The notes under the pieces were generated by a model. The model saw only the letters and a list, made by a program, of their open reading frames with translations, was not told where the DNA came from and did not search any database. A DNA stretch of 64,000 nt from a virus, in IMG/VR virus record IMGVR_UViG_3300033518_000130. One strand, given 5' to 3'. Both the position numbers and the translations under genes were made by a program. This document shows, in pieces, positions 4,687-61,675 of the stretch (position 1 is its first letter; each line of letters opens with the position of its first letter).

Positions 4687-5369
4687 ATATAGACATAAAG
4701 CAAAACGAGATTCTCTCTCTTTCGGCTGACGGTTTAACTTTATCTATAAACAAAGTTGAAATCTTTAAAAATATAGAGTTTAAGAATTTAATAAATCTAT
4801 TTGAAGAGGATAAAGGAAATCCTCTACATAAGAAACAACAGTTTATTAATATACTCTTTTATATATATCTAATGGAAGATCCTCGAAGTGTTTATTATAG
4901 TAATCCTGAGAAAGAAAAACAAAGAGATATTACTAGATTTCTTAAATTAAATAATTTCACAGAGCCTAAAGAAGTTACTATTTGTAGAGAGTTATATAGA
5001 ACTAGATATATAGACACAAGCCCTAACGCATACACTTACCTCTCGGCAAACCTTGAAATTAAGAAATTAGGTATGAGGATAAAAAGAATAGGAGAATCTA
5101 TAGATAAGTTAGAATCTATTTTAATAATTAAGTTAGAAGAATTAGATATAACTTCTGATATATCTCCTGAATTAATTAAAAACATTCAAGTTATTAATAA
5201 TACTATTAAAGATTGTATAACTAATAGTAAATCTATTAGAGATATGATTAAAGAAATACCTAGTTTACAAAAATCTATTGTAGAGATTTATAAAAATTGG
5301 GTAGAAACTGATAGCGGTAAACGTAAAATATACGGTAGCGATGAAGATGTTTATAATAGAGAAGTTTAA
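4683..5369 (+). CDS. hypothetical protein
   Basis: 228-aa ORF, translationally coupled to the upstream gene. It contains two copies of the CTYTCGGC motif. Confidence 0.6.
   Translation: MNIDIKQNEILSLSADGLTLSINKVEIFKNIEFKNLINLFEEDKGNPLHKKQQFINILFYIYLMEDPRSVYYSNPEKEKQRDITRFLKLNNFTEPKEVTICRELYRTRYIDTSPNAYTYLSANLEIKKLGMRIKRIGESIDKLESILIIKLEELDITSDISPELIKNIQVINNTIKDCITNSKSIRDMIKEIPSLQKSIVEIYKNWVETDSGKRKIYGSDEDVYNREV
4711..4727 (+). repeat. CTYTCGGC-motif copy 1
   Basis: ttctctctctttcggct, inside CDS 4683..5369, read as L-S-A. Confidence 0.8.
5033..5048 (+). repeat. CTYTCGGC-motif copy 2
   Basis: cacttacctctcggca. It shares the 16-mer acacttacctctcggc with copy 6. Confidence 0.8.
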
Positions 5370-5380
5370 AATTACTATTT

Positions 5381-6358
5381 ATGATAAATATAGTTTATAA
5401 AAAAGATATACAGCAAAATGAAAAAGATTATAAAGATATAGATTTCGATGAAAAAACTCATAGTTATACTAAAGATGGAATAAAATATATATCTGTTACT
5501 ACTTTAATAGGATTATATAAAAAAGAATTTAAAAAGGAATTTTGGGGAGTTTATACTGCATTAAAAGATGCTAATATAAAAATTAAACCTGAACCTGAAT
5601 TAAATATTATTTATATAGAAGGAACTCCTTATAGTATAGATAAAATTCTTAAAGACCCGTTATATAGTTTGTATTATAAAAAAACTATTAATGATTGGGA
5701 TATATTAACTGAAGAGGCTTGTATTAAAGGAAGTAACACTCATAATTTTTTAGAAGATACTATTAATAAGAGTAAAAAAGATTATACAGGAGAGAGTAAT
5801 AAACTTATAACATGGTCAGCCGAGAAGAAGAGTTATTCTTGTGTATCTGATTTAGATTCTACTAATTTAGAAGAAGTCCACCCTTTTATATACAAAAGAT
5901 TAAAATCATATATAAATACAGGAGCTGTAATATATGCAGAGAAAAAAGTATTTTTAAAAGATTATAATGTAGCAGGTATGATTGATGTTCCTATTATTAA
6001 AGGAGATAGATTCGTTATACTTGATTGGAAAACTAATAAAGAGGAATTACATAAAACTGCTGGGTATTATAAGAAAATACAATTAGGAGGAAAGTGGATT
6101 AAATCTACTGAATGGATAAAAACAGGAGAAATGTTATTATACCCTATTAACCATTTAGAGAATAGTAAATTTAATATATATGCTTTACAATTAAGTTTAT
6201 ATGCTTATATATTAGAACAATGGGGATATACTCTAGTTGATAATGGATTAGAAATTATACATATTAGAAATAATAATAATCAATTAATAAAAATACCTTA
6301 TTTAAAAAATGAAGTTAAATTATTACTAGAACATTATAAAAATAATCAACAAAATTAA
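5381..6358 (+). CDS. PD-(D/E)XK (RecB/Cas4-like) nuclease
   Basis: Motif series: GSNTHNFLE, then GMIDVP, then FVILDWKTNKEE (D...DxK), then ALQLSLYAY (QxxxY). Confidence 0.6.
   Translation: MINIVYKKDIQQNEKDYKDIDFDEKTHSYTKDGIKYISVTTLIGLYKKEFKKEFWGVYTALKDANIKIKPEPELNIIYIEGTPYSIDKILKDPLYSLYYKKTINDWDILTEEACIKGSNTHNFLEDTINKSKKDYTGESNKLITWSAEKKSYSCVSDLDSTNLEEVHPFIYKRLKSYINTGAVIYAEKKVFLKDYNVAGMIDVPIIKGDRFVILDWKTNKEELHKTAGYYKKIQLGGKWIKSTEWIKTGEMLLYPINHLENSKFNIYALQLSLYAYILEQWGYTLVDNGLEIIHIRNNNNQLIKIPYLKNEVKLLLEHYKNNQQN
5819..5835 (-). repeat. CTYTCGGC-motif copy 3
   Basis: Plus strand gccgagaagaagagtta, reverse complement taactcttcttctcggc. Antisense to CDS 5381..6358. Confidence 0.8.
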
Positions 6359-6365
6359 TATTATT

Positions 6366-9155: not shown

Positions 9156-11570
9156 ATGGAAGATTTAAATTATATAAACGAAAAAAATAAACATAAAAAA
9201 GAACCTAGTACAGGAAGTTTTTTACCTAGTTTATTTTTAGATAGTAAACTTATTAAAGAAAATGATAATGCAATAATAAAACAAATAGCAGATTATTATA
9301 TAAGTAATTGTGGATATAAAGAAGAGTATGTAGAAATACAAAAACTTAGAGCTGCTGTAGAAGGAGTTATAAACGAAGGAGACTATAAACATACACTATC
9401 TCCTTTCGGCTTAAAAAATAATAGTAAACTTAAAAGTACTACAACATTAAAAAATTATAATATTTTAAAAGCTGTTACTTCTTTATTTGAAGGAGAATTT
9501 GGAAGAAGAACTCACGAATATTCTGTTATTGACGGTAATCCTGTTGATGATAGTAGATATAAAGAATCTTTATATAAGCTATACGAACAACATTATGCAC
9601 AAGAAGTTGTAAATAAACTAAATGAACAAGGATTCTCTACAGGAGAAGAAACTGTTGAACAACCTCCTTTAGAACAAAAACAAAAAGAACTTAAAAACGC
9701 TTTTGATAAAGAGAGAGTTATAAACGGTCAAGATGCTTTAGATTATATTAAATCTGAACAAAAAGTAGAAGAAAAAATAATAGAGATGTATCATGATTGG
9801 ATAACAGTAGGAAGAGGTATATCTTATAAAACTGTTAGATTTGATGATGTTGATTACGAATATGTACCTGCTGAAGAATATTTCTTTCCACATGAAACAC
9901 ATAGTCCTTATATAGAAGATTATTCTTATGGAGTAAGAAGAAAAAAAACTAATATATCAAGATTATTAGACTTATTTCATAATATATTTGGAGATGATAT
10001 AGAAATGTTAGAAGATTTAGAAGCTAATGGAAGATATAGTGTAGGTAACCATTATAATAATACCGCAAGTACTACTAATACCGCTTTTGGAAGAAATGGT
10101 TATATAAATAATACAAATTCAAGATATATAGATAGTTTAGGAGAATGTAAATCCGTATATGGAGAAGTTTTTACAAATACTGATGATATTGATTATTTCC
10201 ATGTAGTATTTAAAGGATTCTTAAAAGTAGGAGAACTTACTTATATAGATGAATTAGGTCAAGAAAGAGTAGTAGAAGTTGATGATACTTATAAATTAAA
10301 TAAAGACGCTGGAGATATAAAAATAAAATGGCATTATGAAAATAGAGTATTTGAAATTCATAAAGCAGGAGATTATTTCTTCGGATTTAGACCTATTCCT
10401 TATAATAGAGCAGAAGTAAATAATAAATCTGTTCAAAAGCTTCCTTATAATGGAAGAGTAACGAGAACGAGAATAGGACAAATAAATAGCATTATTAAAG
10501 AAGGGTATATTTATCAACTACTTGTTAATACAGTATCCTATTTAATTGAAAAAACTTTATTAAAGAATAAAAATAAGTTATTAGTACTGCCTAAAGGATT
10601 AGTAACAAGTAAAAAAGGACTCAACACAACAGATACTATGGTTCATGCAGACGAAACTTCTATACTTTGGATAGATGAATCTGCTCCTAATGCCGCTGTA
10701 GCTCTTCAAGCTATTAAATCAATAGATATGCAATTATTTAATGATATAGCAGGGTTACAAAGTTTAAGAACAGATATAATTAATCAATTTTGGTCAAGTA
10801 TAGGAATGAATGCTCAAAGATTTAATGATATAGATACTAGAGCAGGTAAATCAACCACTGAACAAGCTATACTTCGTAGTGCTATTATTACAGCAGAATC
10901 TGTTAGACAGTTTGATAAATTTATTCAAACTGAATACGAAGGATTTTTAGATTTAAGTAAAATGGCTTGGGTTGATGGTATTAAGAAAAAATATATTAAA
11001 TCTGATGGAGCAGAAGCGATGATAGAATTAAACGCAGATGATTATATTAAACATTTAGAAAGTGATTATAATGTATTTGTTAAAGATTCTCAAGAACTTA
11101 CTGAAAATATGAATACTTTAAAACAACTAGTATTACCTATGTTACAAAATAATGGAGGTTTAAAATCAGTAGGAACAGTATTAAGTCTTAATAGCCCTGA
11201 AAAAATAGCTAAAATATTAGCTGATTTAGAAGATAAAAATCAAGATCTAGAACAACAAAATGCAGAATCTCAAAGACAACATGAACAAGAGATGGCTAAA
11301 ATAGAAGAAGAAGGAAAAGAAAAAGATAGAGATGTAGATAGATATAAAGCCGATTCTAATAAAGAAGCTATTATACAAGCTGCTAAAACAAGAGCTGAAT
11401 CCACTTATATTAATAAAGATATTCCTAATGCTTTAGATAAAGAGAAATTTGAACATCAAAAAGATATTGAAAATAAAGAATTAGAACATCAAATACAAGT
11501 TGAAAATAAAGAACTTGTATTAGAAGATAAAAAGATAAATGTAATGAAGTTAAAAAATAATAAAAAATAA
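9156..11570 (+). CDS. portal protein
   Basis: 804 aa, directly downstream of TerL, with a K/E-rich coiled-coil C-terminus. Assigned by size and synteny only. Confidence 0.6.
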   Translation: MEDLNYINEKNKHKKEPSTGSFLPSLFLDSKLIKENDNAIIKQIADYYISNCGYKEEYVEIQKLRAAVEGVINEGDYKHTLSPFGLKNNSKLKSTTTLKNYNILKAVTSLFEGEFGRRTHEYSVIDGNPVDDSRYKESLYKLYEQHYAQEVVNKLNEQGFSTGEETVEQPPLEQKQKELKNAFDKERVINGQDALDYIKSEQKVEEKIIEMYHDWITVGRGISYKTVRFDDVDYEYVPAEEYFFPHETHSPYIEDYSYGVRRKKTNISRLLDLFHNIFGDDIEMLEDLEANGRYSVGNHYNNTASTTNTAFGRNGYINNTNSRYIDSLGECKSVYGEVFTNTDDIDYFHVVFKGFLKVGELTYIDELGQERVVEVDDTYKLNKDAGDIKIKWHYENRVFEIHKAGDYFFGFRPIPYNRAEVNNKSVQKLPYNGRVTRTRIGQINSIIKEGYIYQLLVNTVSYLIEKTLLKNKNKLLVLPKGLVTSKKGLNTTDTMVHADETSILWIDESAPNAAVALQAIKSIDMQLFNDIAGLQSLRTDIINQFWSSIGMNAQRFNDIDTRAGKSTTEQAILRSAIITAESVRQFDKFIQTEYEGFLDLSKMAWVDGIKKKYIKSDGAEAMIELNADDYIKHLESDYNVFVKDSQELTENMNTLKQLVLPMLQNNGGLKSVGTVLSLNSPEKIAKILADLEDKNQDLEQQNAESQRQHEQEMAKIEEEGKEKDRDVDRYKADSNKEAIIQAAKTRAESTYINKDIPNALDKEKFEHQKDIENKELEHQIQVENKELVLEDKKINVMKLKNNKK
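9393..9412 (+). repeat. CTYTCGGC-motif copy 4
   Basis: acactatctcctttcggctt, in the portal gene, read as P-F-G (a different frame). Confidence 0.8.
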
Positions 11571-15762: not shown

Positions 15763-16806
15763 ATGACAGCGTCTGAAATACATATTGAAATAAATATTCT
15801 TTTACAGAAAATAGATACACACTGGAATAAGAATTTTCTTCCTGAAGAAATAGACATTATATTTAACAATGAGGTATTAAAGTTTATTAAACAAAGATTT
15901 AAGCCTAATTCTAATAATAAAAATGAAGGTATTTATGATACTACTAAGAGAATAGATGATTTAGATGCTTTATATGAAGAATTACCTTTTAATATATTAT
16001 ATGAAGGAGAGAAAGCAATAGTTTTCTTTCCTTATAATTATTTATATTATATTAGTAGTGAAGTAAATACTTTTTGTAAATGTAAATTAGAAGATAATTC
16101 TACGATTATTAAAAGTAAAGATATTATAAAATATAAGCCGATAGGAGAGGTATCACGTGTTATCTTTGAGTATATTACTACTGTAAATAGTACTGTACTT
16201 TTTGATAGTGATAATTTACCTAATAACTTTTTAATAGCTAATGAAGATAAAGGATTTAATAATAACTTTATTTTAAATAATGTAATATTATCTACTTTAC
16301 TTAATAAAAAAATAAATATTAAGTATAATAGTTTAGAAGAAGTTTATGAAATAGAAGGATTAGAAGGAGAACTAAAAATAACAACTCAACACTTACCTCT
16401 CGGCTCAACTGTAATAACTTCTTATCAATCTACTAAAATTGATTATAATTATTATACTATGATAGATAAAGATAATATTGCTACAGTTTCTACTAGAGTT
16501 CTTAATGAAGAATTTAAAACAAGAATTAAAAAATCTTATTTAAGTGGTTCTAAAGACGAATCTGTGCTTTTATCGTTGTTTAAAAACCGTTTAGAAATTG
16601 AATTTTTATCTAATTTTATTGGTAATAATTGCATTTTAAGATACTTACGAAAACCTAAATTATTAAACGTACATTTGAATAATTCAATAGAGTTTGATAG
16701 AGAAGTTATAAAAGAAATAATATCTAATACAGTTCAAACTATAAAAGGGATAACTTCAGAAGAAGGATATGAGAAATTTAAAACAGAGAATATATTAATT
16801 GAGTAA
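15763..16806 (+). CDS. virion structural protein, function unknown
   Basis: 347-aa ORF, tightly packed in the structural block. Confidence 0.5.
   Translation: MTASEIHIEINILLQKIDTHWNKNFLPEEIDIIFNNEVLKFIKQRFKPNSNNKNEGIYDTTKRIDDLDALYEELPFNILYEGEKAIVFFPYNYLYYISSEVNTFCKCKLEDNSTIIKSKDIIKYKPIGEVSRVIFEYITTVNSTVLFDSDNLPNNFLIANEDKGFNNNFILNNVILSTLLNKKINIKYNSLEEVYEIEGLEGELKITTQHLPLGSTVITSYQSTKIDYNYYTMIDKDNIATVSTRVLNEEFKTRIKKSYLSGSKDESVLLSLFKNRLEIEFLSNFIGNNCILRYLRKPKLLNVHLNNSIEFDREVIKEIISNTVQTIKGITSEEGYEKFKTENILIE
16137..16153 (-). repeat. CTYTCGGC-motif copy 5 (variant CTATCGGC)
   Basis: Plus strand gccgataggagaggtat, reverse complement atacctctcctatcggc. Confidence 0.65.
16390..16406 (+). repeat. CTYTCGGC-motif copy 6
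   Basis: cacttacctctcggctc. The 18-mer ctcggctcaactgtaata (16399-16416) is identical to 39469-39486. Confidence 0.85.
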
Positions 16807-23368: not shown

Positions 23369-24250
23369 ATGAATTTTATATATAGTTATTGGGAAACGGC
23401 AGACGATAACCAAAACCTATTAGAGTCTTTCTCTAATAGGTGGTTAAATACCGAATTTATGTTTTTTTCCTTAATACAAAGTGTATTAAAATCTAAAGAG
23501 TATGCTACAAAAGTAGTTATGATAACTACAACTAGATGTAAACCTATATTTGATAAATTAGAAATATTTGACGAAGTAACTACAGATTTAGATGCTATAT
23601 CTCATTATGATAGAGATATGTGGGCATTAGGAAAAATATATGCTTATTCAATTCAAACTGAACCATTTATACATATTGATAACGATGTTCATTTTAATTA
23701 TAAGTTTCCTATCTATTTATTTAATGAGAGTAAAATAGATATAGCAGTTCAAAGTATTGAACATAATAAATCTAGTATGACTACTTTTACTCCTTTTTAT
23801 AATAGAATTATAAACACTTTATATAAAAATGGATTTAAAACAAATATACTTAATTTCGGAAGATCTTTTAAAGCATATAATATGGGAATATACTTATGTA
23901 ATAATATAGAATTTAATACTTTATATTGTACGGAAGTATTTAAAATGATAAATGAAAATAAAGAAGCATTTATAAAAGCAAAAAAAATTTGTGTATCAGT
24001 TATCTTTGAACAATACTTATTATACTTGTTAGCCGAAAGAGAAGGGTTGAGGGTTGAGGTTTTGATAGATAATTATAAAGATAAATTTATACAAGAATAT
24101 GGTTATCTTCATATATGGGGAAGGAAAAAGGATTTAGAGCTATATAATAAATTTAAGAATTTATTTATTAATTACTATCCTAATTATTTAGAAAAAATAA
24201 ATAATCTTTTAGATATTTATAATATTAAACAAGAATTAAAAAATAAATAA
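23369..24250 (+). CDS. DxD-containing nucleotide-sugar-transferase-like protein (function uncertain)
   Basis: 293 aa. MWALGKIYAYSIQTEPFIHIDNDVHF resembles the hhhhDxD strand of GT-A-type glycosyltransferases. This rests on memory of the family only. Confidence 0.3.
   Translation: MNFIYSYWETADDNQNLLESFSNRWLNTEFMFFSLIQSVLKSKEYATKVVMITTTRCKPIFDKLEIFDEVTTDLDAISHYDRDMWALGKIYAYSIQTEPFIHIDNDVHFNYKFPIYLFNESKIDIAVQSIEHNKSSMTTFTPFYNRIINTLYKNGFKTNILNFGRSFKAYNMGIYLCNNIEFNTLYCTEVFKMINENKEAFIKAKKICVSVIFEQYLLYLLAEREGLRVEVLIDNYKDKFIQEYGYLHIWGRKKDLELYNKFKNLFINYYPNYLEKINNLLDIYNIKQELKNK
24032..24048 (-). repeat. CTYTCGGC-motif copy 7
   Basis: Plus strand gccgaaagagaagggtt, reverse complement aacccttctctttcggc. 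Confidence 0.8.
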
Positions 24251-42800: not shown

Positions 42801-43980
42801 AAGTATTTCAGAAGAAGTAATTTTAAATCCTTTTAATAAAGATGAATATGTTATATTTGATAAAAATGGAAATATTGTTAAAAAGTTTGATAGAGTTAGT
42901 AGTTTAAAAGAGAAAAGAGGAAAAACTATATTTAAAGATGAAAAAGCTGCTCATAGAGGAAATATAGTTGATAACTTGTTAAGAGTTTTTATAGAACAAG
43001 ATAATATGTCTTTAGAAGAATTAAAAGAAATCTATAAAAATACAGACAAACAAACAAGTTTATCTTTTTCAGATATTACTTTAAATAGTTTATTTTTAAA
43101 TTTTAAAGAGATTAAATCTCATTTTAATTTAAAAGGTATAAAATTAATTTCTAATATACCTACTTTATACGGTAATATAAATGGAAAAGATATAGCAGGA
43201 ACAGTAGATTTATTAGGAATAAAACCTAATGGAGAGATATTTATTATAGATTTAAAAACAAGTTCACAAAATAGAACAGATAAAAAGAATAAATTTTATG
43301 AAGATTATTTAAGTGATGATACTATACAACAATCAGGATATGCTGAGTTATTTGGACAAGTAACAGGTAAAAAAATTAAAAGTATTTTTATAGTACCTAT
43401 ACAAATGTTTAAATCAGATGAAACTACTTATGGTTATACTTCATTATCTGCTGGAGAAGATATTGTATATGAACTTAAAAAAGATAAAAATATTTGGAAA
43501 GATAGAAAAGAAACTAGTAATACTCAAACTACATCTACTACTCAATCTAAAGTAAATATTAATATAAATAAATACGGTAATGACGTAATAAATAATAAAC
43601 CTTTATCTACTTCTATTAGTATTGAAGATTATAATGATAATTTTGGAAATTCTAGTAATATAGATTTAGAAAGTATTGAAGATTATATCCCTGAACCTTA
43701 TTTTAATAATCAAGAAGAATATGATACATATTTAGAAGATTTTAACAAAAGACGATTAGAATATATAGAAAATCTTAAAAAAGAACAAATAACAGAACCT
43801 ATTACTCAAGAGGATAAGTATAAAAGTAAAGACTTAGAACCTCTTAACACTTCTCTTTCGGCTTATACTTCTGAGTTAAATATAGACCCTATACTATTTG
43901 AAGAATTTATGCAGAAAAATATGAATACAATAATAGAGCAATTAAAAGATAAAGAATTAATAGAAGAAATTTGTAAATAA
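36823..43980 (+). CDS. giant virion (ejected/cargo-type) protein with C-terminal RecB-like PD-(D/E)XK nuclease domain
   Basis: 2385 aa. N-terminal Gly/Ala-rich hydrophobic segments (ATSAGAFAALGWATGGGSLATL and MLGAIGGAGQTAITAGIG) are followed by long coiled coils. The C-terminal nuclease motifs are AAHRGNIVDNLL, GTVDLLG, IFIIDLKTS and IQQSGYAELF. A degenerate copy (TTVDLILTNKTTGKVKLLNFSST) lies mid-protein. Confidence 0.6.
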   Translation: MGRQRKPIKPTPTDYIINSVKQNNNPLGGIDTADSIKQTTTPPIDILQTYNRNAPTIASSNALDVGEYSGYGGVYDAISLDREQADRTRAEGQSGLAQIRNAIGRVVTNILPEIVKQAANMLDPEEYLQNDREVGNSIAEAMTSLQESANESMPIYRTNPNESFDFGDSGYWLENGANLATSAGAFAALGWATGGGSLATLTRGAKVLKGLNMARKGTGTLANIFSEGTNLIRLSNSTQKVVRGASTLSSAILLNQAEGVGVAVDVYNEQYNKKLEELKSNGLNFNKSDEELEYEAKTHASEAASSAIAYNRLNIALNLTSANMLMKPSMVTSKILTKPGVMNTFKNIGLEAGQEALEEEVNHLSQKLVTDKQGKVRGFFDMAKATLSSEGANEMFSEQGLESAMLGAIGGAGQTAITAGIGNLNIRANDTYNNSYKNETVKLQNENILNAINGKPQISEAEIETKAKAKALQEAGTDKEKVSDFFIKKQQYILQQEQIQKEKNRFEGNPSDANFLLQSGKEQEELQKKIEEAINNGDNEKADSLKDALIEKQAYTAFQMGTTQNLVDLYSGISTLSPNEAKAKGLTDDYKEKAIQAINDIKELEDIYTDSQANYHNSEDVYDSKNFLRDLSKAEKRLTSRLVELNTPINQSLDNKINEKAKVVQERELIEKFKKEKEDYLKDSNATDNKEAKDWLKGRAEERQKRIDEIDEKRIERQEKEIEESIKAKQEIEDIINGKKIESVDKKDTDGKLLKINSFLSPETIALLKKEVNGEQLLKVIQQLQNKDGEGIRDFKDKTEEVLGIITSFEHQTKLYKSYKKAKEKRDKEDKEQKAKDKEARRKERIANSWLNKFNRNKQNDIEDNTENDKESKDKPKTDTSLLGSTVIPVNTSIPVNTNVESILNFFNNKSNNPIIYFDSNTIIFNNEHYTNFRNNNNAEPFKINQNETIFSFFKRLKANKEYSLLENNKVLPLLAEGKTSIFKDSLQQILIDLIKDVSNTYPLLSNEEVVNNLIKELKDYIDIIGKDYNISSNVILTDSKTGVSTTVDLILTNKTTGKVKLLNFSSTYNKEGKLKSENEKLEVNNLKLATVLLKNQGIEVEQATIKPIKLTVKEDSIIPTDNNNINFDNIELVDNSIDVKTDDKSIDVKVNKILTKDLIISLTNPFQLDSEEASSEENEDENSIRLEAISSQVDNLLILQRNPNETIETYVRRVKQSIYNTHQEKIEELENDLKEQLEEAEDENILTKIQIITNLNYPTFLTKEVADLKIKYLSDFIDNIDNYAETDEDKEALIKIIEDEIINIEEEIINILKGLNTLENNPKFIFYEEVRDYLKKITDILEDNGNLDKVDKIELLKNNFDYIKGLVEEKLGISITPEDLVTFIKQYNKYELRPEFLLKEVYNEILVDIFNNIFNLSEDNKILDMNEIFLTQEELDSNKKIIDDEIKEILNDFSPLIEDFSFDKFLEIHKAHIKFLNGNLSKGEVFVDDEIMSMGKLVNSMSSSLAYLSKEYTLEMEEINGIKRKVYKEKNNNLNPEIDTRVIDIKSGDKVEFEVLPFISYVREKFIKEEKYTVKEELIQEGIEYRKITTITNQKTGISEITEEMVDFLSNAPIQIKINGEPYKGLFIRTLASIGVSTVKSIEEVEQEKELLLKLRENILTNNLTETKITIIGEGHLIDNVEGAKKINEAFPEDEVKIGYINKKGEPVEIINGEEIPIVLDNINYLNKIQEAGIEVRGRNILLIPNENGISYTFSFSKSDIISNEIKTSINKVVEIYLNKLAKNPLSKEQEEIWKRVLKSSKDLDNDTSKDLDKLFNYINSFVNIIFDNKGLNLEKELFKDDLQDKKLEKYINKPLIIKTSTGINFGIGGSTYASGFIPINNIKGISNNQINEILEKLDKVLEQSNFNYRLFTAKSNETFIVNENNNIEERKYDEIVKNNQSTPFTSIEVNGKKVYKVQKTLYIDTKEESENQKNNKEFNPIINTIENEIRQSISEEVILNPFNKDEYVIFDKNGNIVKKFDRVSSLKEKRGKTIFKDEKAAHRGNIVDNLLRVFIEQDNMSLEELKEIYKNTDKQTSLSFSDITLNSLFLNFKEIKSHFNLKGIKLISNIPTLYGNINGKDIAGTVDLLGIKPNGEIFIIDLKTSSQNRTDKKNKFYEDYLSDDTIQQSGYAELFGQVTGKKIKSIFIVPIQMFKSDETTYGYTSLSAGEDIVYELKKDKNIWKDRKETSNTQTTSTTQSKVNININKYGNDVINNKPLSTSISIEDYNDNFGNSSNIDLESIEDYIPEPYFNNQEEYDTYLEDFNKRRLEYIENLKKEQITEPITQEDKYKSKDLEPLNTSLSAYTSELNIDPILFEEFMQKNMNTIIEQLKDKELIEEICK
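38722..38736 (-). repeat. CTYTCGGC-motif copy 11
   Basis: Plus strand gccgagaagagattg. Its first 13 nt are the perfect reverse complement of 39462-39474. Confidence 0.8.
39461..39476 (+). repeat. CTYTCGGC-motif copy 12
   Basis: catctcttctcggctc. Confidence 0.85.
43847..43864 (+). repeat. CTYTCGGC-motif copy 13
   Basis: acacttctctttcggctt. Confidence 0.8.
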
Positions 43981-46900: not shown

Positions 46901-49900
46901 AAGAAGCTTATGATAAATTTGAAGCATTAAGTGATAAAGCTAAAAAAGGAATACTTAAAGAAACTCAACAAAAAATACAATTAGATTATTATAATGTTAA
47001 AGATAATTTTTATACTGCTAAATATATAGGAGTAGCAGAAGCTACTAGTGATAATCAAGGTAAAAGATTAGCAGGAGATAATGCAAGTGGAAAACCTATT
47101 ATTGAAAACATTAAAGGAGAAAAATTTAAATTATGGATTGTTAAAAGTAGTAAAGTAGCATCTGCTTATATTAAACAATATAAAGAAAAATTAGGAGATA
47201 ACGCTAGTAATTATGAAAGTATTGATTCTACTGATGCTCAAGAATTTACTACTATATACGAATACTTAGATATTTTAGTAAGAATGAATACTATTACTGA
47301 AGATATTAAAAATAAAGCATTAGAAGCTTATGATAATGACGAAGAAATAGATTTTAAAGCATTAGGTATTGTAATACAAGCTCATAAACCTGTATATAAT
47401 AATAATTTTTTAAGAGATGGAGTAAATAGTAGATTATATGTTAAATCTGCATCTTTACCGTTAATAAAACAATTTACTAAAGGATTACCTATAGATAAAG
47501 TAAGAGAATTAATGGAAAAGAATAAAATACAACGATTAGCATTTACTTCAGCAGTTAAAGTAGGAACTCCTACTAACGTACATACTTTAGTTAATAAAGA
47601 AGGTATGATAGAATTACCTTCTACAGATGAAAATGGAATATTGAAAGACAATTCTTTAGTATTAGATGTACCTAGATTAGGTCATAAAACTCAACAAGAT
47701 ATTCCTTATGATGAAAAGAAACGTAATATTAATGATGGTACTCAACAAAGACAATTATTATTTGAAGGAATATTAAATATGAATGGGTTTATAGATCCTG
47801 AAACAGGAAAATTTATAAAAGGAAGAGAATTATATAATAAATATATAAATAAATATGATAAAGCATTTTTATATAAATATAATAAATTTCTTAAAGAATT
47901 TACTACTAATGAAGGAAAATATATAAATTACTCTGAATTAATAAAAGTTTTAAGAAAGGAAGCTATTAAGATGAATTGGACAGATAATGAAGTAGCTGAA
48001 TTAAAATTAGGAGCTGATGGTAGATTTGAAGTACCTCTATATTTAGCTAAAAATGAAGGTAAAATGATTAGCTTAATTAATTCTCTAGTAGATAATAATA
48101 TTAGAAAGTTAAAGCCGAGAGGAAAGAGTTATGTTTTAGTTTCTGAAGTAGGTATCAATATAAGTAAAACTAACAAGAATATAGTTACTATAGAAGGTTT
48201 TGATGGAGAATTAAAACCTATGAGGACTGATGAAAAAACAGGAGAAATATTACCTGCTGAAGTTATTATTCCTTTTAATATGTTTGATAACTATGGTACT
48301 AAACTAGAACTTAAAAACTTTGTAGATAATAATGGTAATTTAGATACTACTAAATTACCACCTGAATTATTAGAATCTTTTGGATTTCGTATCCCTACAC
48401 AAGGACATAGTTCTATGACTTATGTTAAAGTAGTAGGTTTTACTACAGCAGGAGTAAACTATGGAGATATAATGTTTGCACCTAAAGATTTAGTAGCTCA
48501 AATGGGGTCGGATTTCGATGCAGATAAAATGTATAATAATTTCTATAATACTTTGTATGATAATAATACAGGAATATTATATAAAGCTACACAAGAATTA
48601 GTAGATAAAATAAAGAAACAAAATGAAGATTCTAATACTAGTATTAAATCTATTAAAGAAAACTATTCTAAAATAAATCAAAATAAAGAAAAAAGAAAAG
48701 AATTAGTAGAAAAGTTTTTAGAAGGTCAAGATGATTTATTTAAAGAAACAGTTAGAACTATTTTAACATTTAAAACAGAGATAGCAATAGATAATTATTT
48801 AAATGATAATTTTGAAGGATTACCTAATGATATAATAAATTCTATTAAAGATATTAAAAGAGAAGTGGATTCGTTAAAAATAAATATTAATGAATTATAC
48901 AAGGAAAATAATACTAAAGAAAAAATACCTTATATTAAACTTCCTAAAGAAATAGAATTACAAGTACTAGAAAATGATATACTAGATATACATAAGTCAG
49001 TAATGCTACACCCTGAAGTAGATAAAAAGATGAAAAATCCTTTAGATAATAAAGAATTAAATAATATTACTGAATTAGCTAAAGAATTTAACTCTAAAAA
49101 AAGCAAATCCAACTACACTCCTCTTTCGGCTTACCATCAATCTTCAAAGTATTTAAATGCTCGAAGTGGTAAAACGGGAGTAAGTTCGTTTGCATTAGAT
49201 AATGTATTAAATGCTACATTACAAACAGTAGAAAAACCTATGTTTATTTATGAAGAAATTGAAGTACCTAATAATGAGGGAAAAAAAACAAGAAAAATAA
49301 AAACTTATAAAATAGCAGGTAAAGAAACAAACGCTTTAAATAACCCATTAACAATGAATGGAGGAAATAAATCAGATTTAATTTCAGCCTTTTTATCTGT
49401 AGCTGTAGATAACGAAAAACTACAATTAATGGATAAAATTAATGTTAATAAAACTACTTTTGATTTTATTAGAGGTGCTATTCAACAAGGATTAGACGAA
49501 AATTTAATACTAACTATACTAAATAACCCATTTATTAAATATTATATAAGTCAAAAACAATTAAGAAATAATGCAGAAATAAATAAACTTGAAAATTTAA
49601 TTGATAAATTTAATAAAGACACTACTACAAGTTATTCAGGCTCATTAAAAGATGAAAAAATATTAGATAAATTAAAATTTGACATAGAATTAAATATTAA
49701 AGATTATATAGATAAAGAGGGAATACTTGAAAAAGATAAAGACACTTTAACTTCTGAAGATAGAATAATTGGTCAAAGAATAAAAGAAATATTTAAACTT
49801 TATAATGATTTAGAGGGCGATGGTAAACAACTTCGAGTAGTACAAAGTGCTTTAAATTCTGATAGTAGTGGTATAGGAAAAGATATGTTTTATTCGTTAG

Positions 49901-51405: not shown

Positions 51406-54400
51406 TGGATAATTGTACATTTCAAATAAACGGAATAGATAAAATATTTAACTCTGAACAAGAAGTATTAGATTATATAAATAGTAATCCTATAGCAAAA
51501 GAATTAATAAAAAGTATCAATAGAAATATTGATACCTTTGAAAATAAAGTAAATAGTAATGAAACTAATATAACTAAAACTAAAGCTGAAATTAAAGAGT
51601 CTGTTAATCCTACTACATTTACTAGTTATTCAGGAGCAGCTAAAGGAGGAGATACTGTTTGGAATGATAAAGGTAAAAAATATAATATAGGAAAACAAGT
51701 AAATTATGTACCTGATACTTTACAAAAACTAGATGAAAATCAAAGAAAGATAGTAGAAGATGCTTATCAACAAGCAGTAAAAGATTTAGGAAGAAAGCTC
51801 TTACCTTATGATTGGAATAACCCAAATAAGAAAGATGAGAACGATAAAAGCATATATTTTGCTGGAGGTTTAGTTAGAAGAGATTTTTTACAAGCTAAGG
51901 CATCTGATGCTATATTTGCTATTAGTGATATTATTTTACCTAATGAAGAAGGTAAACCAGTAAAAGGCAAAAGGTATTCTAACAAAATAAATAAAGCTAT
52001 TGTAGATGGAGGTACTGGTTATGCTGTTCAAATGGCTATTAATTTAGGTAAACCTGTATATGTATTTCATCAAGGAAGTAATAAAGACAATTCAACAGAA
52101 ATAGGTTGGTATAAATGGGAATCAGAATATAACTTATTAAGAGAAAATACTAATAAAGGAAAATTTGTTAAAGTAGATACCCCTATATTAACTGAGAAAT
52201 TTGCTGGTATAGGAACAAGAGAAATAAATGAAGCAGGGAAACAAGCTATAGAAGATGTATATAATAAAACATTTAAAAGTTTAAATACAAATAACAATCA
52301 AAATGTAAAAGGAGAAGAAATAAATAGCTATGCTGATAATTTAGCATTTGCTTTAACTAATCCTACTGTAACATCACCTAAAGGATATACTTGGAGCAGA
52401 CAATGGACTGCTGGTCAAAATAGTTGGAGAAATTATATGTCTAAAGGTATAGACTTTAATGGTGTTAATTATAAAGATGTTGAAGAAGCATATCAAAAAA
52501 ATAAAAATAATTATCCAATAGGCAAAGCAAGAGATAATTTTATGCTTTCTTTAATAGAAATAAAACTTAAAACATATCCTAATTTAGTAGAAGGTATTGA
52601 TAAAAAAGGTGGGGTAGGTTATATTTTAAATTCTACACATCAACCAACTAAACAAAATTCACATTGGGAATCTGGGGGTAATAATGCTTTTATTAAGTTA
52701 TTAGCTCAAGCATATCAAAATGTAATTAACAATCAAAATGTTAATACAGAATTAAATAATAGTAAAGTAGAAGAAAAAATAAATATATCAAATTCTACTA
52801 ATGGATTACAAAATATAAGTAACCAATCTACAAAAGAACTTGTTAATCCTATCTTAGAACAAGGCAGATATGTTACTTTTAACGGAGAAACTTATATAGT
52901 AACTAAACAAAATTCTAATGGAACGTGGCAAATATATAATTCTACTAAAGAAGGAACAAAGGCTAAAAAATCAGTAAGTGAAGAGAATTTAACATTATTA
53001 AAAACTAAAGCTGAAATAATTAATTATAAAGGTACAGATTACATTGTTACTCCTAAAAAAACTATAATTAGTTTAACTACTAATAAAAAAATGGAATGGG
53101 GAGAAGAAAATGGAGATAGAAGAAGTATTTTAGGGTTAGCCGAGAAGAAGAGTGATTCTGTTTCTGTTGTTTCTACTTCTACCACCTCTAATAATAAAAG
53201 TATTACTATTAAGATTCCTACACCTAAACAATTTAAAACTCCTAAACAGAAAGTTAAAGATAACAGTCCATTAATTAACACAGGAGATAAAAAAACTGAA
53301 GCATTAACTAGATTAGGATTTAAAAATAATAGTAATGAAATCGGATTAAAAGCTCTTATTACTAGAACTATAGGAGATGAACCTGCATTAGTATCTATTA
53401 AAGATTTGTTATTTAAAGCTATAGATAATCAAAAATTAAATGATTTACCTGTATTTATAGATAATAATTTAAGTCAAAGAGGAGAATTAAAAAGTAATAA
53501 TGGAATACCTTTATATATTAAAATTAATCCTAATAAAATAATACCCGATTCTAATAAATTATTTACTACAAAAGATGAAGCAGAGATTAAAAAAGTATTA
53601 TTAGAAGAAATATTACACGCTGTTACTAAAGGAGCATTAGTTAAAACAAATTCTAAATTAGTTAATGATTTAACTAATATTAGAACAGAAGCATTAGAAT
53701 TATTAGAAGGTTCTTATCCTTCATTGAATAGTGTTATAAGTAAAATAAACGAAAAGAAACCCTTAAATAAAAAAGATTATATTATATATAAACTTTCTAA
53801 TAATACAGAGTTTATTCAAGCATTTATTCAAGAACCTAATTTTAGAAAAATACTTGCAGATATAGGAAAAGATACTAAAACACTTACTGTTCCTACTTCT
53901 ATATTAGCTAGATTAAAAAGCTGGTTAAGTGATTTATTTAGTAGTTTATTTCCAAATACTAAAGATGTTAGTAATTTAGCTCGTAGAGCAGTAGTTACTA
54001 CGTTTCAAATACTAGAAGATAGTTCTATACTAGAAGAATCTAGTATTATTAAAACTAAAAACTCGTTAATCAGTGAATTTATATTAAAAGATGATAAAGG
54101 TAATAATTTAGTTATTAATAATGCTACAGAAGTAGCTGAATTTATTAATAATAACGTAAGAAATATTAGAGCTTTTGTTAATGAAGATAATACGATAGAT
54201 TTACAATATATAGATTCAGCTCAAGGAACAGTATCCGATTACAATATTTCTTATAGTGATGAATTTGAAGATTTTGAAAATATTACTAATAATGTTGAAG
54301 ATTTTATAGACGCAGGTAATTTTAATCTTAAATCCTTAACATCTTATCTTAATCAAACTTTAAAAAGATTAAAAGATAATAAAAGAAGAATAAGAATAGA

Positions 54401-57400
54401 ATTAGATGAAACTACAGATACTGTTAAACAAAAAGAACTTAATACAGAAATAGAACGTATTAATGATAAAATTTCTAAATTAAGTGAGATTAGAAATAAT
54501 AGTACTAGTTTAAGTAATGGATTAGAGAAAAAAGAAGTAATAAATTTAGCACTAGAACAACTAGATGAAGTAGAAAGACAACTCAAATCACCTATCCTTT
54601 CGGCTACCGAACTTCTTACATTAAGTGGAACAGTTAATTTTTGGAATCAAGCTAAAGATTTATTATTTACTGAAGAAGATTATAACGATACAGAATTATT
54701 AAAAGATTTTGGAGGTATTCAAGCAGTTGCTACTACTACAAGTAAAAAAGTTCTTACTAAAATGAAAGATTATTTAGAAAGTTCTGTTGTTCTAGGAAAT
54801 GAATCAATAGATACTTTAATGGAAGCTTTTAAAGATGTTAATTGGATAACAAGTCAAGCTACTGATATTAGTACTACAGGTAATGCTTTATTAGAAGGAG
54901 TATGGAAAGTAGTAAAAAAAGCTAATTACGATACTACAAGAGAAGGAGAAGAATATCATAAAAAAATTGATAAATCTTATGAAAAAATAAAAAATAAAGT
55001 AAAAGGTAATAATATTAATGATATATTTTCAGCTTTTAAACAAAAAAATAAAAATGGAAAATTAACTCAAAACTATGTTCATAGATATACTTTTGAATAT
55101 TCTAATGCTCTTAATAAAGTATTATCAGGTACTAGTGGAGGGTCTAATGCTCAAAATTATTTAAGTTTAGCTAAATTTTATTCTGATAATCAATTAGATT
55201 ATTCACTTATAAAATTATTTCCTAAAGAAATAACCCATGAATCTATATTATTACAAGAAAAAGAAGAAAAAAGGATAATAGATGAAATAGGAGTAGCTCA
55301 TTATAACGAATGGTATGAGAAACAATCTAAACAGCTAGAGAATTATAAGAATGATTTAGAGGCAACTATTAGATTTAAAAAAGATAATTATAAAGAAGAA
55401 GTAGTAAAAGTATTTGATAATAAACATAGTAATATGTTAAATTCAGATAATATTAATAAAGAGTATTTAGCTAAACAACTACTTGAAGAAAAAGAAATTA
55501 TATTAAAAAGTATAGAATCTGAAAAATATGCACCTTTAGTTAAATTTATTAAACAATATGAACAAAAAAATAGTCCTTATTATTTACAAGGAACTATAAA
55601 TGCTTTTAAAAATAAGAATAAATTACAAGAAGAATATAAGTCTTTAGATATTACTAAATTAAAAGAAAAGGCAGCTTTACAAGAAAAGATATTAGATATA
55701 GATAAGCAAAAACAAATGTTTATATCTTCTTTTAATATTGATAATAATTTATTTGCTAATAAATATTTTACTTCTTTACCAAAACAAAAATTAAATAATG
55801 GAGATAATATTTATGATAAGGATTTTGAAGTTATTGAAAATGATAAAGACTTAAAAGAGTTTTATGATTTAATGCAAGATACTTTTCAAAATCTTTCTAA
55901 ATATCTTCCTTATAGTGAACGTAAGCAAATAATGTATGGAGGAATACCTATGATAGAAAAAACCATGTTTGAAATGTTTATGGGTAAAGGATATAAATTA
56001 GGTTGGACACCTATTAAAACAGAAATGGATAAACTATTTCAAGTAGTAGGAAAAGAAAATACTAATAGTGTTAAAGATTTTTCTACTAATAAAATAGAAG
56101 AAGAGCTATCTACAGGTTTAAGATTTGATTCTTATCAAGATTTTCAAGATAAAGTATTATTAAAGAAAATAGATTATTATAAAGCTAATCCTGAAAAAGA
56201 AAAAGAGTTTATAGATAATCCTGAAAAAGAAGCAGATTTAATAGAAAAATTAGAAGAAGAAACTAGAGATGAATTAGCTAAAGATAAATCTTTTGATTTA
56301 GTAAAAATAATGAAATTATACAATGTAGCTGTTACAGGTTATAAACACAAAGCTAAAATAGAAGATAGTTTAAAAGTAGCTCAAATAGTATTAGATTCTT
56401 ATGAAGAAGTTAGAAGAGATAGTGAAGGTAAACCATTAAGGGATTCTATCAATTCAACTATTTCTAAAAAAGCTAAAGAGGATTCTTTTGTTAATATGAA
56501 AAAACAATTTGATTATTATATAGATGCAACAATGTATAATAAATCAAGAGAGATTAATAGAGGTAAAATCATATACACTAAAGAAGAATCTATAAAGAAA
56601 AAGAAACTAGAAAAATATATAGAAGAGTATAATGAAGATTTATTAAAATTAGATATTAAAATAAATGAAATAGAAAATAAAATTTCTAAAGAAACTAATA
56701 TGAACTTAAAAGAGTCTTTAGAAAAAGACTTACAAAGTTTATTAATTCAAAAATCTAGAATTAATATAAATATAAATAATTCTGAACAGTTAATTAGTAA
56801 ATTAGGAAATCATAGAGATAAAAATGCTCCAATAGATATAGCTATTAAATGGAATCAATGGAATGGTATGGGTTGGAATGTTATAGGAGGTATTAGTAAT
56901 ATGGCTTTTGGATTAGTAGCTAATATAATAGAAGGTAGTGGTAACGAATTATATAATAATTCTCAATTATTTAAAGCTTACACTAAAGTATTAAGGCATT
57001 CAAGTCTTAAAAATTTAACATTTAATAAATGGGAAACAGATGAAGCATTTAAAATAAGAAAAGGAATGAATAAACTTAATATTCTTAACGATGCTTCTGA
57101 AGAATTAACTAATAGTAGTAGTTGGGATACTAAAAAGAAATTAGATTGGTTACATTGGGCTAATATTAATAAACGTACTGAATATATAAATCAAGCTCCT
57201 TTATTTATAGTTATGATGCAAAATACTAAATATACTACACCAAATGGAAAAATTATAAGTTTAATGGAAGGATTCAATAAAGATTTTAATTGGGATACTA
57301 CTAAGTATGGAGCTGAACCTAGTGATTTAATATTTAAAACTAAAATAAAAATAGACCAACTTATTAAAAATCGTACACATGGTAATTATGATCCTCTTTC

Positions 57401-58327: not shown

Positions 58328-58330
58328 ATT

Positions 58331-59838: not shown

Positions 59839-59859
59839 ATTATTCTTTTATTAGTATTA

Positions 59860-60321
59860 TTATATAAATAAACTTTTAACAGCATACATACAACTAGTTT
59901 CTAATTCTGTTTGAGCTATTGCTAATTCTCTAATTCCTTTACCTTTTGATTTCATCTGTTCAAGAAAATCAATTAAATAAGCATATTTTTGTTTAAGTAC
60001 TTCTACTTCTTTATTAGCAGAAGGATTAAAATTTCTTTGTACTCTATTTTCTCCTAAAGTAAGAGGTCTTTGTGTTCCGTCATCTATTTCCATAATATTA
60101 TTACTTTTACCTATACAAGCGAGGTTTTTAATTTTACTATTTATTATTATATCTTCTTTAGCTAACATTACTCTTTTAGCTCTTTGTACTATTTCCTCTT
60201 CTCTTATTCTTGAATTATAATGAGGTACATATATACCTAAATCATAAGCCATAAGAAAATTATGGATTTCACTAGCATCAGCATTTGGATTATGTAATTG
60301 ATAAAAATTATATATATTCAT
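59860..60321 (-). CDS. hypothetical protein
   Basis: 153 aa. C-terminal helix RELAIAQTELETSCMYAVKSL, of a type common in small phage proteins. Function not assignable. Confidence 0.5.
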   Translation of the reverse strand: MNIYNFYQLHNPNADASEIHNFLMAYDLGIYVPHYNSRIREEEIVQRAKRVMLAKEDIIINSKIKNLACIGKSNNIMEIDDGTQRPLTLGENRVQRNFNPSANKEVEVLKQKYAYLIDFLEQMKSKGKGIRELAIAQTELETSCMYAVKSLFI

Positions 60322-60332
60322 ATTTTTATTAT

Positions 60333-60650
60333 TTAATCGAAATTAACTTTACCTACTATTTTCCAAGCTTCTTTTAAATTAAAATCTTTAGATATAGCAT
60401 AGTATTCTCTACCATCTTCTGCAACTATTCCTATTGATATTAAATCAATAGTAGGTTTTGTTTTACTATATTTAAAACCTAAAAAAGTTTTATCTTGAGT
60501 ACCTTCAAGAAATTCTGTATCTATAAAATATTTCATTGTTTTATTTTCTTTAATTCCTAAATAATTAATAGCTCTTTCTTTAGAATTATTATATAACCAA
60601 CATACACCCTTAATATAATCAAGTAATGTAGGAGCAAGAGGTTTTATCAT
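60333..60650 (-). CDS. DEDD-type 3'-5' exonuclease, N-terminal fragment only (possibly truncated/pseudogene)
   Basis: MKYFIDTEFLEG...IDLISIGIVAEDGREYYAISKDFNLKEAW carries the ExoI DxE motif of Rv2179c-like exoribonucleases. The ORF stops about 10 aa later, without ExoII or ExoIII. Confidence 0.4.
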   Translation of the reverse strand: MIKPLAPTLLDYIKGVCWLYNNSKERAINYLGIKENKTMKYFIDTEFLEGTQDKTFLGFKYSKTKPTIDLISIGIVAEDGREYYAISKDFNLKEAWKIVGKVNFD

Positions 60651-61675
60651 TACTCTACTCCTTTTAAATGATCATATTCTTCTCCTTCTTCAAAAATACT
60701 AAAATCTAATCCTTTTCCAAATTTAGGTTTAGTTATTATAGTTTTACCCATAAAATCAAATGATTTATTAAATTTATCATCTTTAATAATAAGTTCTAAA
60801 GTATCTATAAGATAATCTACTTTCCTTATACACCATTTCTGATAGTCTGTATCTATAGTAGGAATACTATAATTACCTTTATCATCATATAGTATATAAT
60901 TAAAATACCCTAATCTACCTAATATTTCTCTTTCGGCTAATCCATACATTCCTATTTGAATATCATATCCATATTTAATAATATCAAATATAAATTTATC
61001 AGGTACTAAATTACTTACAAATTTTAAATCTGTAACACCTTTTAATTCATCATTATTATTAAATATATCCATTTTAACAATAATTTCCCAACTTTTGTAA
61101 TTAAAGGTAAAATCTTTAATTGTTTCAGCTTGTTCAAGATAAACTATAATTTCTTCTTTAGTTTTAAGATTTTCTGCTATTTGGTAAGCCGAAAGGTAGG
61201 TGGAGTTATTTACTATTTCTTTACCTTTTACCATATCTATACAATATTGAGCTAAACATAAAACTTTAGCATCAGCTTTACCTCTTGCATAATGATTACT
61301 AAAACAAGAAGCTATATAAGATTCTGCTAAAGATATACTTAAATCTTTATTATTAAGTTTATCTTGTAATAGTGATTTTATTACCTCTTCACATAATCCT
61401 TTTTGATTATCTGAAGTACTACTAGGAGTATGTTTTAAAACACTAAAAGAATCATTAAACTTATCAGGGTTTAATAATAATACATCTACCATAGTTCCCA
61501 AAGAGCTTTTACTAGCTGATTTAGATACTAATCCTAATTTTTCTTTTTTTCTTTGTAATAAATACCCCATAAAATTTATAGGGCTATTTAAATGTTTTAA
61601 AGTACTATAAGAAAGTTTTATTTTCTTACCTTTTAAATCTTGTTTAATTTCTTGTATTAATTCTACGTCTATCAT
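60650..61675 (-). CDS. PD-(D/E)XK (RecB/Cas4-like) exonuclease
   Basis: 341 aa. Motifs: LSYSTLKHL, GTMVDVLLL, VKMDIFNNNDELKGVTDLKFV (D...DxK) and YDIQIGMYGL (QxxxY). Confidence 0.55.
   Translation of the reverse strand: MIDVELIQEIKQDLKGKKIKLSYSTLKHLNSPINFMGYLLQRKKEKLGLVSKSASKSSLGTMVDVLLLNPDKFNDSFSVLKHTPSSTSDNQKGLCEEVIKSLLQDKLNNKDLSISLAESYIASCFSNHYARGKADAKVLCLAQYCIDMVKGKEIVNNSTYLSAYQIAENLKTKEEIIVYLEQAETIKDFTFNYKSWEIIVKMDIFNNNDELKGVTDLKFVSNLVPDKFIFDIIKYGYDIQIGMYGLAEREILGRLGYFNYILYDDKGNYSIPTIDTDYQKWCIRKVDYLIDTLELIIKDDKFNKSFDFMGKTIITKPKFGKGLDFSIFEEGEEYDHLKGVE
60924..60939 (+). repeat. CTYTCGGC-motif copy 18
   Basis: atttctctttcggcta, on the plus strand and therefore antisense to the minus-strand CDS 60650..61675. 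Confidence 0.8.
61188..61205 (-). repeat. CTYTCGGC-motif copy 19
   Basis: Plus strand gccgaaaggtaggtggag, reverse complement ctccacctacctttcggc. Sense to CDS 60650..61675, read as L-S-A. Confidence 0.8.

Follow-up and report, generated by a model that had tools for sequence, protein, structure and literature searches.

Evenly spaced, strand-specific motif copies in a crAss-like phage genome: probably an undescribed genome-wide signal for DNA replication or repair

Dispersed and direction-specific DNA words have been described in several biological systems. Primase start sites and single-strand initiation (ssi) signals, such as those of Escherichia coli DnaG, phage T7 gp4 (5'-GTC-3', with pentamer preferences), the complementary-strand origin of phage G4 and plasmid ssi, are strand-specific and are used on a single-stranded template, where the pyrimidines that follow a cryptic 3' nucleotide template a primer of ~10-12 nt with a purine start. 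DnaG-type primases start on a template trinucleotide of the YYG type, which in E. coli is 5'-CTG-3', the primer beginning with pppAG and reaching ~10-12 nt. Another example is provided by the stoperators of Cluster A mycobacteriophages and the C1 operators of phage P1, in which ~15-35 dispersed asymmetric sites of 13-17 bp, some of them in genes, are bound by a phage protein. Chi sites are over-represented, direction-specific words that lie in genes in any frame, and a translocating enzyme recognises them in single-stranded DNA (PMC3064778). Finally, strand-specific nick sites have been reported in phage T5, in the phiKMV-like phages and in phage tf, where 4-14 or more dispersed copies of an asymmetric consensus are found in genes and serve a purpose that is unknown; in phage tf there are 14 such sites in 46 kb (PMC3517423). 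The element described here is a motif in which a pyrimidine tract without G runs into the tetramer CGGC, and it is repeated on both strands of IMG/VR virus record IMGVR_UViG_3300033518_000130. The whole stretch analysed (64,000 nt, hereafter the window) belongs to a crAss-like phage (Crassvirales) and has a G+C content of 24.6%. The motif is a real, selected and strand-specific DNA signal; it is probably an undescribed genome-wide signal for DNA replication or repair, and it is an element that resembles Chi, phage nick and primase start sites in kind and fails a defining feature of each.

The enrichment of the motif is evident at the level of short words. An initial annotation of the window had counted about 29 copies of CGGC and GCCG, 19 of them in one context, and the same figures are obtained on recounting (15 and 14, respectively, with 19 at the 3' end of a G-free tract). 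The finer counts, on the other hand, had to be corrected: the exact word CTYTCGGC occurs 14 times and not 17, the C at position -3 of TCGGC is present in 15 of the 19 copies and not in 18 (the other four copies are TTCTCGGC), and the copies in the window are divided into 11 plus and 8 minus instead of 12 and 7. The 19th copy is the variant CTATCGGC, on the minus strand at 16140. In dinucleotide shuffles of the window, 0.18 copies of CTYTCGGC are expected and no shuffle contains more than 2, and for the relaxed word YTYTCGGC 18 copies are observed against 0.81 expected (shuffle maximum 4). Enrichment survives the codon-aware shuffling that the initial annotation had proposed as a test, since at most 4 copies are produced against the 14 observed (mean 0.53 and maximum 4 when synonymous codons are shuffled; mean 0.14 and maximum 2 when codon order is shuffled), and in the k-mer analysis proposed alongside it the motif word tops the 8-, 9- and 10-mers of the window. 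The longer identities claimed between certain copies are also present (a 16-mer at 5032/16389, an 18-mer at 16399/39469 and 20 of 22 nt at 5816/53136). A near-complete genome of 83,302 nt was assembled from the window and two overlapping loci, and seven more copies were found in it beyond the window, giving 26 in ~83.3 kb (14 plus, 12 minus). When both strands of this genome were scanned with a position-weight matrix, 24 sites scored at least 26.5 bits and two CTATCGGCT variants scored 21.8 and 14.4 bits, and no other site exceeded 8.8 bits. The scores are therefore bimodal, with 26 sites at or above 14.4 bits and a background at or below 8.8, and decayed copies are absent.

The copies are evenly spaced on each strand taken separately. 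The gaps have a coefficient of variation (CV) of 0.35 for plus-strand and 0.31 for minus-strand copies, versus ~0.9 for random placement (p ~1e-4 each); copies lie ~6-7 kb apart on a strand, and the largest gap is ~10 kb. Plus-strand gaps are mostly 4.4-9.8 kb, the exception being the neighbours at 4723 and 5044, which are 321 bp apart, and minus-strand gaps range from 2.9 to 10.3 kb; without the variant copy at 16140, the minus-strand copies would leave a gap of 18 kb. Maximum-gap tests give p = 8e-4 (plus) and 2e-4 (minus), and p = 8e-4 is also obtained when the 26 positions are assigned shuffled strand labels. When both strands are pooled the series becomes irregular (CV 0.81), because minus copies tend to sit close to plus copies; head-to-head and tail-to-tail pairs are about equally frequent, and the closest opposite-strand pair in this phage is 127 bp apart. 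The regular spacing and the small size of the largest gap on either strand point to selection for coverage. This per-strand regularity is new relative to the initial annotation, as are the ~40-nt footprint and the membership of a class that are described below. Two of the opposite-strand pairs deserve a separate mention. One sits within the ligase gene. The other is found in locus L019 at 12981-13150, outside the window and ~2 kb to the left of its start, where the copies at 13002 and 13129 form a 27-nt inverted repeat (81% complementary) and flank a ~120-bp AT-rich stretch with an (ATT)n run. The intergenic region around this pair is 480 bp long and is located by a tRNA-Met gene and the helicase and PolA genes, immediately upstream of the replication genes; judged by its sequence, this region looks like a replication origin.

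The anatomy of the motif is more extended than the G-free tract and core recognised in the initial annotation. Both parts are present as claimed, but the full signal is longer, with a footprint of ~40 nt (from about -30 to +9, counted from the C of CGGC) that had been missed. Read 5' to 3' on the motif strand, ~20 nt of A/C-rich sequence, G-free or nearly so (-30 to -11: A 0.49, C 0.25, T 0.17, G 0.09; an A(A/T/C)CAC box is frequent), are followed by ~10 nt of pure C/T (-10 to -1: G 0.00) and then by CGGCTNAC. The conserved core can be written (C)T-Y-T-C-G-G-C-T-N-A-C, its last C being often doubled, as in C-G-G-C-T-N-A-C(C), and the composition is back to background past ~+10 to +30. The 30 nt located 5' of the core allow hardly any self-pairing, and the predicted pairing of positions -30 to -1 is lower than that of control windows (0.59 vs 0.48 unpaired, p = 0.003). 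No conserved hairpin or RNA structure was detected at the motif and no Rfam family was matched there (only tRNAs were found), and a search for a fixed downstream -10-like element yielded only ACTTCT, weakly enriched and not significant after correction.

With respect to genes, the orientation of the motif is unbiased (13 copies are sense, 10 antisense and 2 outside open reading frames, ORFs) and most copies lie deep in genes. Two of the three frames are used per orientation, those giving CGN arginine codons being unused. In the genes for the portal, a nuclease and a structural protein, the motif falls in columns that align with homologues, and in the portal the conserved Asn-Pro of the homologues is replaced by Ser-Pro at the motif. 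Since the copies occur on both strands, in several frames and in such aligned regions, selection acts on the DNA and not on a peptide, as had been proposed in the initial annotation; the signal would be strong enough to override protein conservation.

Signals of the same layout have been obtained in other phages by running the same word statistics on complete annotated Crassvirales genomes. In p-crAssphage, 31 copies of TCCATCCTCYA followed by CGGGGRGT are found (13 plus, 18 minus; 11 sense, 10 antisense and 10 outside ORFs of at least 90 amino acids), with gap CVs of 0.43 and 0.31 (p = 0.002 and < 1e-4) and no significant pairing of opposite-strand copies. In the gp31/gp32 intergenic region of this phage (22888-22965 of locus L268), two opposite-strand copies 19 bp apart form a near-perfect hairpin, and the motif doubles there as a stem-loop. 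In crAss001, a G-poor tract and CTTCT followed by GGAG are repeated 27 times (10 plus, 17 minus; 12 sense, 13 antisense), with regular spacing on both strands (p = 0.046 and 0.0007). The crAss001 core CTTCTGGAG includes CTGGAG (loci L270 and L271), which is the recognition word of restriction enzymes of the BpmI/GsuI type; this word is enriched in the phage and not avoided. Another example is cr271_1, with 17-19 copies of (A)TCACATYTCTTCTA followed by CGGGGGAG, also written YTTCTA followed by CGGGGGAG, which are regularly spaced on the plus strand (p = 0.003, or 1e-4 with one variant). Finally, in cr127_1 (Crevaviridae; 32.5%), the nearest annotated phage, 10 copies of ACGAATTTCGGAACACCTCT followed by CGCCCTTGTGGCCATTAA (the core is also given as AACACCTCT followed by CGCCCTTGTGGCC) are distributed five per strand and are mostly intergenic. 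All five phages have the layout in common: a G-poor stretch, which often includes a CAC box, leads into a pyrimidine tract, and this tract in turn adjoins a G/C-rich core. The core differs by lineage, and the tract and the G-poor stretch are common. Besides this phage, even per-strand spacing is significant in p-crAssphage, crAss001 and cr271_1.

Other searches delimited the distribution of the element. In phi14:2 no comparably enriched word was found, and the cr127_1 element, searched by blastn, matched cr127_1 only. The closest relatives that were fetched (terminase 27-52% and capsid at most 48% identical) lack the CGGC word in the ~20 kb segments examined, and word statistics on these pieces, which were judged too short for power, gave nothing. 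When TTCTCTTTCGGCTNA was searched in viral and metagenome collections, the flanks looked random among the matches listed, and a generic scan for a G-free tract followed by G did not recover the known motif. The initial annotation knew of no described element with this consensus, and in the open-access literature no paper was found that mentions these words, this consensus or the pattern. The element thus appears to be undescribed and not confined to this phage. It could well be, with a likelihood somewhat short of even, that the genomes of many Crassvirales are punctuated by a lineage-specific signal read on single-stranded DNA, placed every ~5-8 kb per strand and independent of genes, which would represent a new genome-architecture class for replication priming or break processing.

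An independent, gap-limited series in each orientation, together with 30 nt that do not pair, suggests that a machine travelling along the strand recognises the signal in single-stranded form, and a lineage-specific core beside a shared tract suggests that the reader is a phage-encoded protein co-evolving with the core. Four mechanisms had been offered in the initial annotation: a nicking or base-modification site, a Chi-like signal, an R-loop or primer-forming site, and a promoter or pause signal. Evidence set out below argues against the last of them, and the Chi-like signal and a primase version of the primer-forming site fit the per-strand series. A tentative reading, favoured here, is that the DnaG-type primase of the phage, in conjunction with its DnaB-like helicase, preferentially starts the synthesis of primer RNA at the motif. 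The motif would then act as a dispersed single-strand initiation signal, read on single-stranded DNA, in which the recognition element would be the G/C-rich core, located 3' in the template, the G at the pyrimidine-to-G junction would be the cryptic nucleotide, and the ~10-nt pyrimidine tract would be copied into a purine-rich, C-free primer starting roughly G/A-A-R-A-G. Even spacing would allow any displaced or lagging strand to be primed within ~10 kb on both strands of a very AT-rich genome, in which strong priming sites would otherwise be rare.

The gene content of the phage is consistent with priming. A Toprim/DnaG-like primase, a DnaB-like helicase, PolA and an ATP-dependent ligase are encoded in a replication module that lies outside the window and also includes an SF1 helicase of the RecD/Pif1-like type, an SNF2 helicase, a RecT-like protein and a deoxynucleoside monophosphate (dNMP) kinase. 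In addition, the pyrimidine tract runs into G in all five phages: here the C/T-only positions -10 to -1 lead into C-G-G, and in crAss001 the junction is exactly CTG. A likeness to the retroviral polypurine tract can also be drawn, as a purine-rich RNA on pyrimidine-rich DNA would be a stable, RNase H-resistant primer; that tract, however, is carved from an existing transcript by RNase H, and half of the sites described here would need antisense transcripts. Neither a reverse transcriptase nor an RNase H was detected among the annotated genes. Several observations weigh against priming. We know of no primase that needs more than ~5 specified template bases, and the described primase sites are 3-5 nt long and abundant, unlike this motif; ssi signals of the G4 type need hairpins, whereas no structure is predicted for the motif. 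Okazaki priming is usually denser than one site per 6-7 kb per strand, and the motif could mark only special or strong sites. Moreover, phi14:2 has a primase yet no comparably enriched word, the minus strand of cr271_1 is irregular, with no copies in its first 31 kb, and 8 of 11 minus copies in this phage lie within 800 bp of a plus copy (p = 4e-4), a pairing that priming alone does not predict.

The spacing is fitted equally well by priming, by a Chi-like function and by nick sites, and other evidence has to be considered for each of them. A Chi-like signal would be one whose core is read by a helicase-nuclease (the host AddAB/RecBCD or a phage enzyme) unwinding DNA from a break, which would then stop degrading and switch to recombination; evenly spaced copies in both directions would limit the loss per break to less than ~10 kb. 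We regard this as unlikely on balance, though a serious candidate. Strand specificity, over-representation, location in genes in several frames and gap-limited spacing per orientation are all in its favour, and so are a density near that of E. coli Chi (~one per 5 kb) and the presence of the RecD/Pif1-like SF1 helicase and of PD-(D/E)XK nucleases in the phage. The largest gap, 10.3 kb, is also shorter than the ~14 kb unwound per binding event by the AddAB enzyme of Bacteroides fragilis, and in 2010 no Chi sequence was known for the AddAB of Bacteroidetes (PMC3064778). However, known Chi sites are 5-8 nt long and do not have a 30-nt compositional flank, whereas the information in this motif spans about -30 to +9, some 40 nt. 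Chi sites belong to the host and are usually conserved within a host group, whereas the cores described here differ between phage lineages, and do so strongly between phages of related Bacteroidales hosts. Furthermore, Gam-like inhibitors of host nucleases are annotated in two of the phages that carry the signal, p-crAssphage and cr271_1, and no recognition subunit of the RecC/AddB type was found in the phage. Nick sites are a reading of low, if still appreciable, probability, according to which a phage nickase would read the core and introduce strand-specific nicks into virion or replicating DNA, as in T5, the phiKMV-like phages and tf. The known nick consensuses are likewise long (9-19 nt), asymmetric, lineage-specific, located within genes and present far above chance, but every described system uses one strand only (PMC3517423), and here 14 plus and 12 minus sites are found; in the other four phages, too, both strands carry sites, and copies on opposite strands are often separated by a few hundred bp or less. 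Those systems are also without a described 30-nt G-poor flank or even per-strand spacing. An ATP-dependent DNA ligase and a PNK3P-type 3'-phosphatase (6366-6860) are encoded by the phage, and genes for a ligase or a polynucleotide kinase/phosphatase are annotated in the other four motif-bearing phages. The phosphatase had been named in the initial annotation next to three RecB-like nucleases, of which two PD-(D/E)XK-like genes are confirmed in the window (5381-6358, an exonuclease gene, and 60650-61675 on the minus strand). Nevertheless, no candidate nickase was identified, the relatives whose ~20 kb segments lack the CGGC word also encode a phosphatase and a nuclease, and opposite-strand copies as close as 127 bp here and 19 bp in p-crAssphage would risk double-strand breaks.

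Explanations of other kinds have less in their favour. It is decidedly unlikely that the copies are duplex-binding sites for an architectural protein, for instance the HU/IHF-like one encoded at 3964-4686, with inverted pairs organising units of ~6.5 kb for packaging or expression. IHF sites are asymmetric, their conserved and compositional patches lying on opposite sides, and the asymmetric ~40-bp footprint of the motif is of this form; an HU/IHF-like gene is present here and is annotated also in p-crAssphage, crAss001 and phi14:2, and the pairing of minus with plus copies mentioned above would support an architectural role. Yet a duplex binder should not need a separate regularity per orientation, and a pure duplex-binding reading is weakened because each orientation is regular and the pooled series is not; head-to-head pairs are about as frequent as tail-to-tail pairs, pairing is not significant in p-crAssphage, and phi14:2 has the IHF-like gene but no enriched word. 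A transcription signal (promoter, terminator or pause) for the virion or host RNA polymerase is very unlikely, the lack of orientation bias and the location of most copies deep in genes, in this phage, p-crAssphage and crAss001, arguing against a gene-expression promoter or a stoperator-like site. Stoperators, moreover, are oriented with transcription and serve temperate immunity, and no repressor gene was identified here. Support for a role in transcription comes instead from cr127_1, in which 7 of 10 copies are intergenic and point to downstream genes, from two cr271_1 copies located 40-60 nt upstream of start codons and from one copy of an intergenic pair of this phage, located 77 nt upstream of a small gene; in addition, single-stranded DNA is the template of the crAss virion polymerase, whose promoters are unknown (bioRxiv 10.1101/2020.03.07.982082). 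In phi14:2, on the contrary, the middle promoters are ordinary TTG...TAnnTTTG sites unrelated to the motif (the genes are named in bioRxiv 10.1101/2020.03.07.982082), and the absence of a conserved hairpin, RNA structure or Rfam match also counts against a transcription signal. A host-type promoter was dropped as a candidate, the phi14:2 promoters being of an unrelated type, and so was a structured RNA or Rfam family, for which there was no match and, in the cr127_1 element, no covariation. Finally, the motif might be functionless, as a miniature mobile insertion, a gene-conversion product or a host uptake-type sequence carried passively. Some copies are indeed more alike than the position weights predict (the 16-mer, the 18-mer and the 20/22 pair), and the word is private to this phage lineage among the matches listed. 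This explanation is nonetheless extremely improbable: the sites are not insertions with respect to homologues (the stretch around the copy at 5822, for example, aligns with them), the scores are bimodal without decayed copies, the spacing is even on each strand and the same architecture recurs with other cores in distant relatives. A mobile insertion of the MITE or RPE type was dropped as a candidate, as the motif stands in columns aligned with homologues.

The 19 copies of the window are given in the following as 40-nt footprints, together with the position of the C of CGGC and the score in the position-weight scan. Gene 4683-5369 carries two plus-strand copies in sense, at 4693..4732 (C 4723, 32.1 bits, read L-S-A) and at 5014..5053 (C 5044, 40.3 bits), and the adjacent PD-(D/E)XK exonuclease gene carries a minus-strand, antisense copy at 5813..5852 (C 5822, 36.2 bits). 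The copy of the portal gene, at 9377..9416 (C 9407, plus, 30.4 bits), is in sense and is the one in which the N-P of homologues is S-P. In gene 15763-16806, the minus-strand CTATCGGCT variant is antisense at 16131..16170 (C 16140, 21.8 bits, next-best background 8.8), and a plus-strand copy lies in sense 261 bp from it, at 16371..16410 (C 16401, 38.2 bits). The highest score, 42.4 bits, corresponds to the minus-strand copy at 24026..24065 (C 24035), which is antisense in the DUF6734 gene (23369-24250) and has the longest G-free run (56 nt). Gene 26098-26877 contains a plus-strand sense copy at 26195..26234 (C 26225, 30.6 bits), and gene 31438-33429 contains both a plus-strand sense copy at 31674..31713 (C 31704, 31.1 bits) and, 570 bp away, a minus-strand antisense copy at 32265..32304 (C 32274, 31.9 bits). 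The three giant genes hold seven copies, the plus-strand ones in sense and the minus-strand ones in antisense: 38716..38755 (C 38725, minus, 30.4 bits), 39441..39480 (C 39471, plus, 36.5 bits) and, near the end of the gene, 43829..43868 (C 43859, plus, 27.2 bits) in gene 36823-43980; 48108..48147 (C 48117, minus, 27.7 bits) and 49097..49136 (C 49127, plus, 40.1 bits) in gene 43993-51405; and 53133..53172 (C 53142, minus, 41.6 bits) and 54571..54610 (C 54601, plus, 32.5 bits) in gene 51405-58121. Finally, the minus-strand PD-(D/E)XK-like gene 60650-61675 includes a plus-strand copy in antisense at 60904..60943 (C 60934, 26.5 bits) and, 257 bp from it, a minus-strand copy in sense at 61182..61221 (C 61191, 36.2 bits).

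As for the phage itself, the genes of the window include those for a crAss-type major capsid protein (PF23898), the large terminase, the portal and three giant proteins of 2,200-2,500 amino acids. The best homologue of the capsid protein among 5.8 billion proteins is 48% identical. The same phage is represented in several metagenomes by contigs of ~83-84 kb with a circular map, and strain divergence is ~0.2% (over ~32 kb compared). No match was obtained in metagenome contigs with an exact 33-mer from the window end, nor in a genome collection with the DUF6734 protein and an exact capsid 28-mer. The window end (~58300-64000), which belongs to the early/replication arm, seems to be variable between strains: 7 of its 8 genes have no exact-protein match, in contrast to genes in the rest of the window, for which exact matches in other contigs exist, and one 715-amino-acid gene is called in a JGI strain versus window ORFs of 145 and 234 amino acids. 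In this region, the protein encoded at 59860-60321 (minus strand) has at its C-terminus a match to the Acb2/Tad1 hairpin domain (PF24729, E = 7.5e-8), which characterises anti-CBASS/anti-Thoeris signal sponges. A divergent ThyX-like protein, with a weak Thy1 match (E = 0.007) and a ThyX-like Arg/Ser-rich motif, is encoded at 61680-62711 (minus strand) next to a gene of unknown function. A 557-bp intergenic gap (36266-36823) precedes the first giant gene, and an ENA contig of the same phage breaks there (~36300), which may reflect an arbitrary break of a circular sequence or physical genome ends. A second enriched word, TGCTATATC, is present 8 times in the window vs 0.89 expected (11 vs ~1 in the whole genome), at 7041, 10743, 22862, 23593, 23738, 37050, 43189 and 60391; it lies mostly on the minus strand and has no relation to the CGGC motif.

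If the signal is as described, it would be genome-wide and strand-specific and would override protein conservation. It is present in p-crAssphage, the most abundant phage of the human gut, and in crAss001, which can be cultured and for which no experimental account of the replication mechanism is known to us; defined sites (27 in crAss001) would give a handle on it through the mapping of nascent-strand starts, nicks, nuclease pauses and protein binding. The co-evolving reader protein suggested by the lineage-specific cores could be identified by comparative genomics. Whatever the mechanism, even spacing on each strand would be an unusual constraint on the evolution of a phage genome, and one that matters for the recoding and engineering of these phages.

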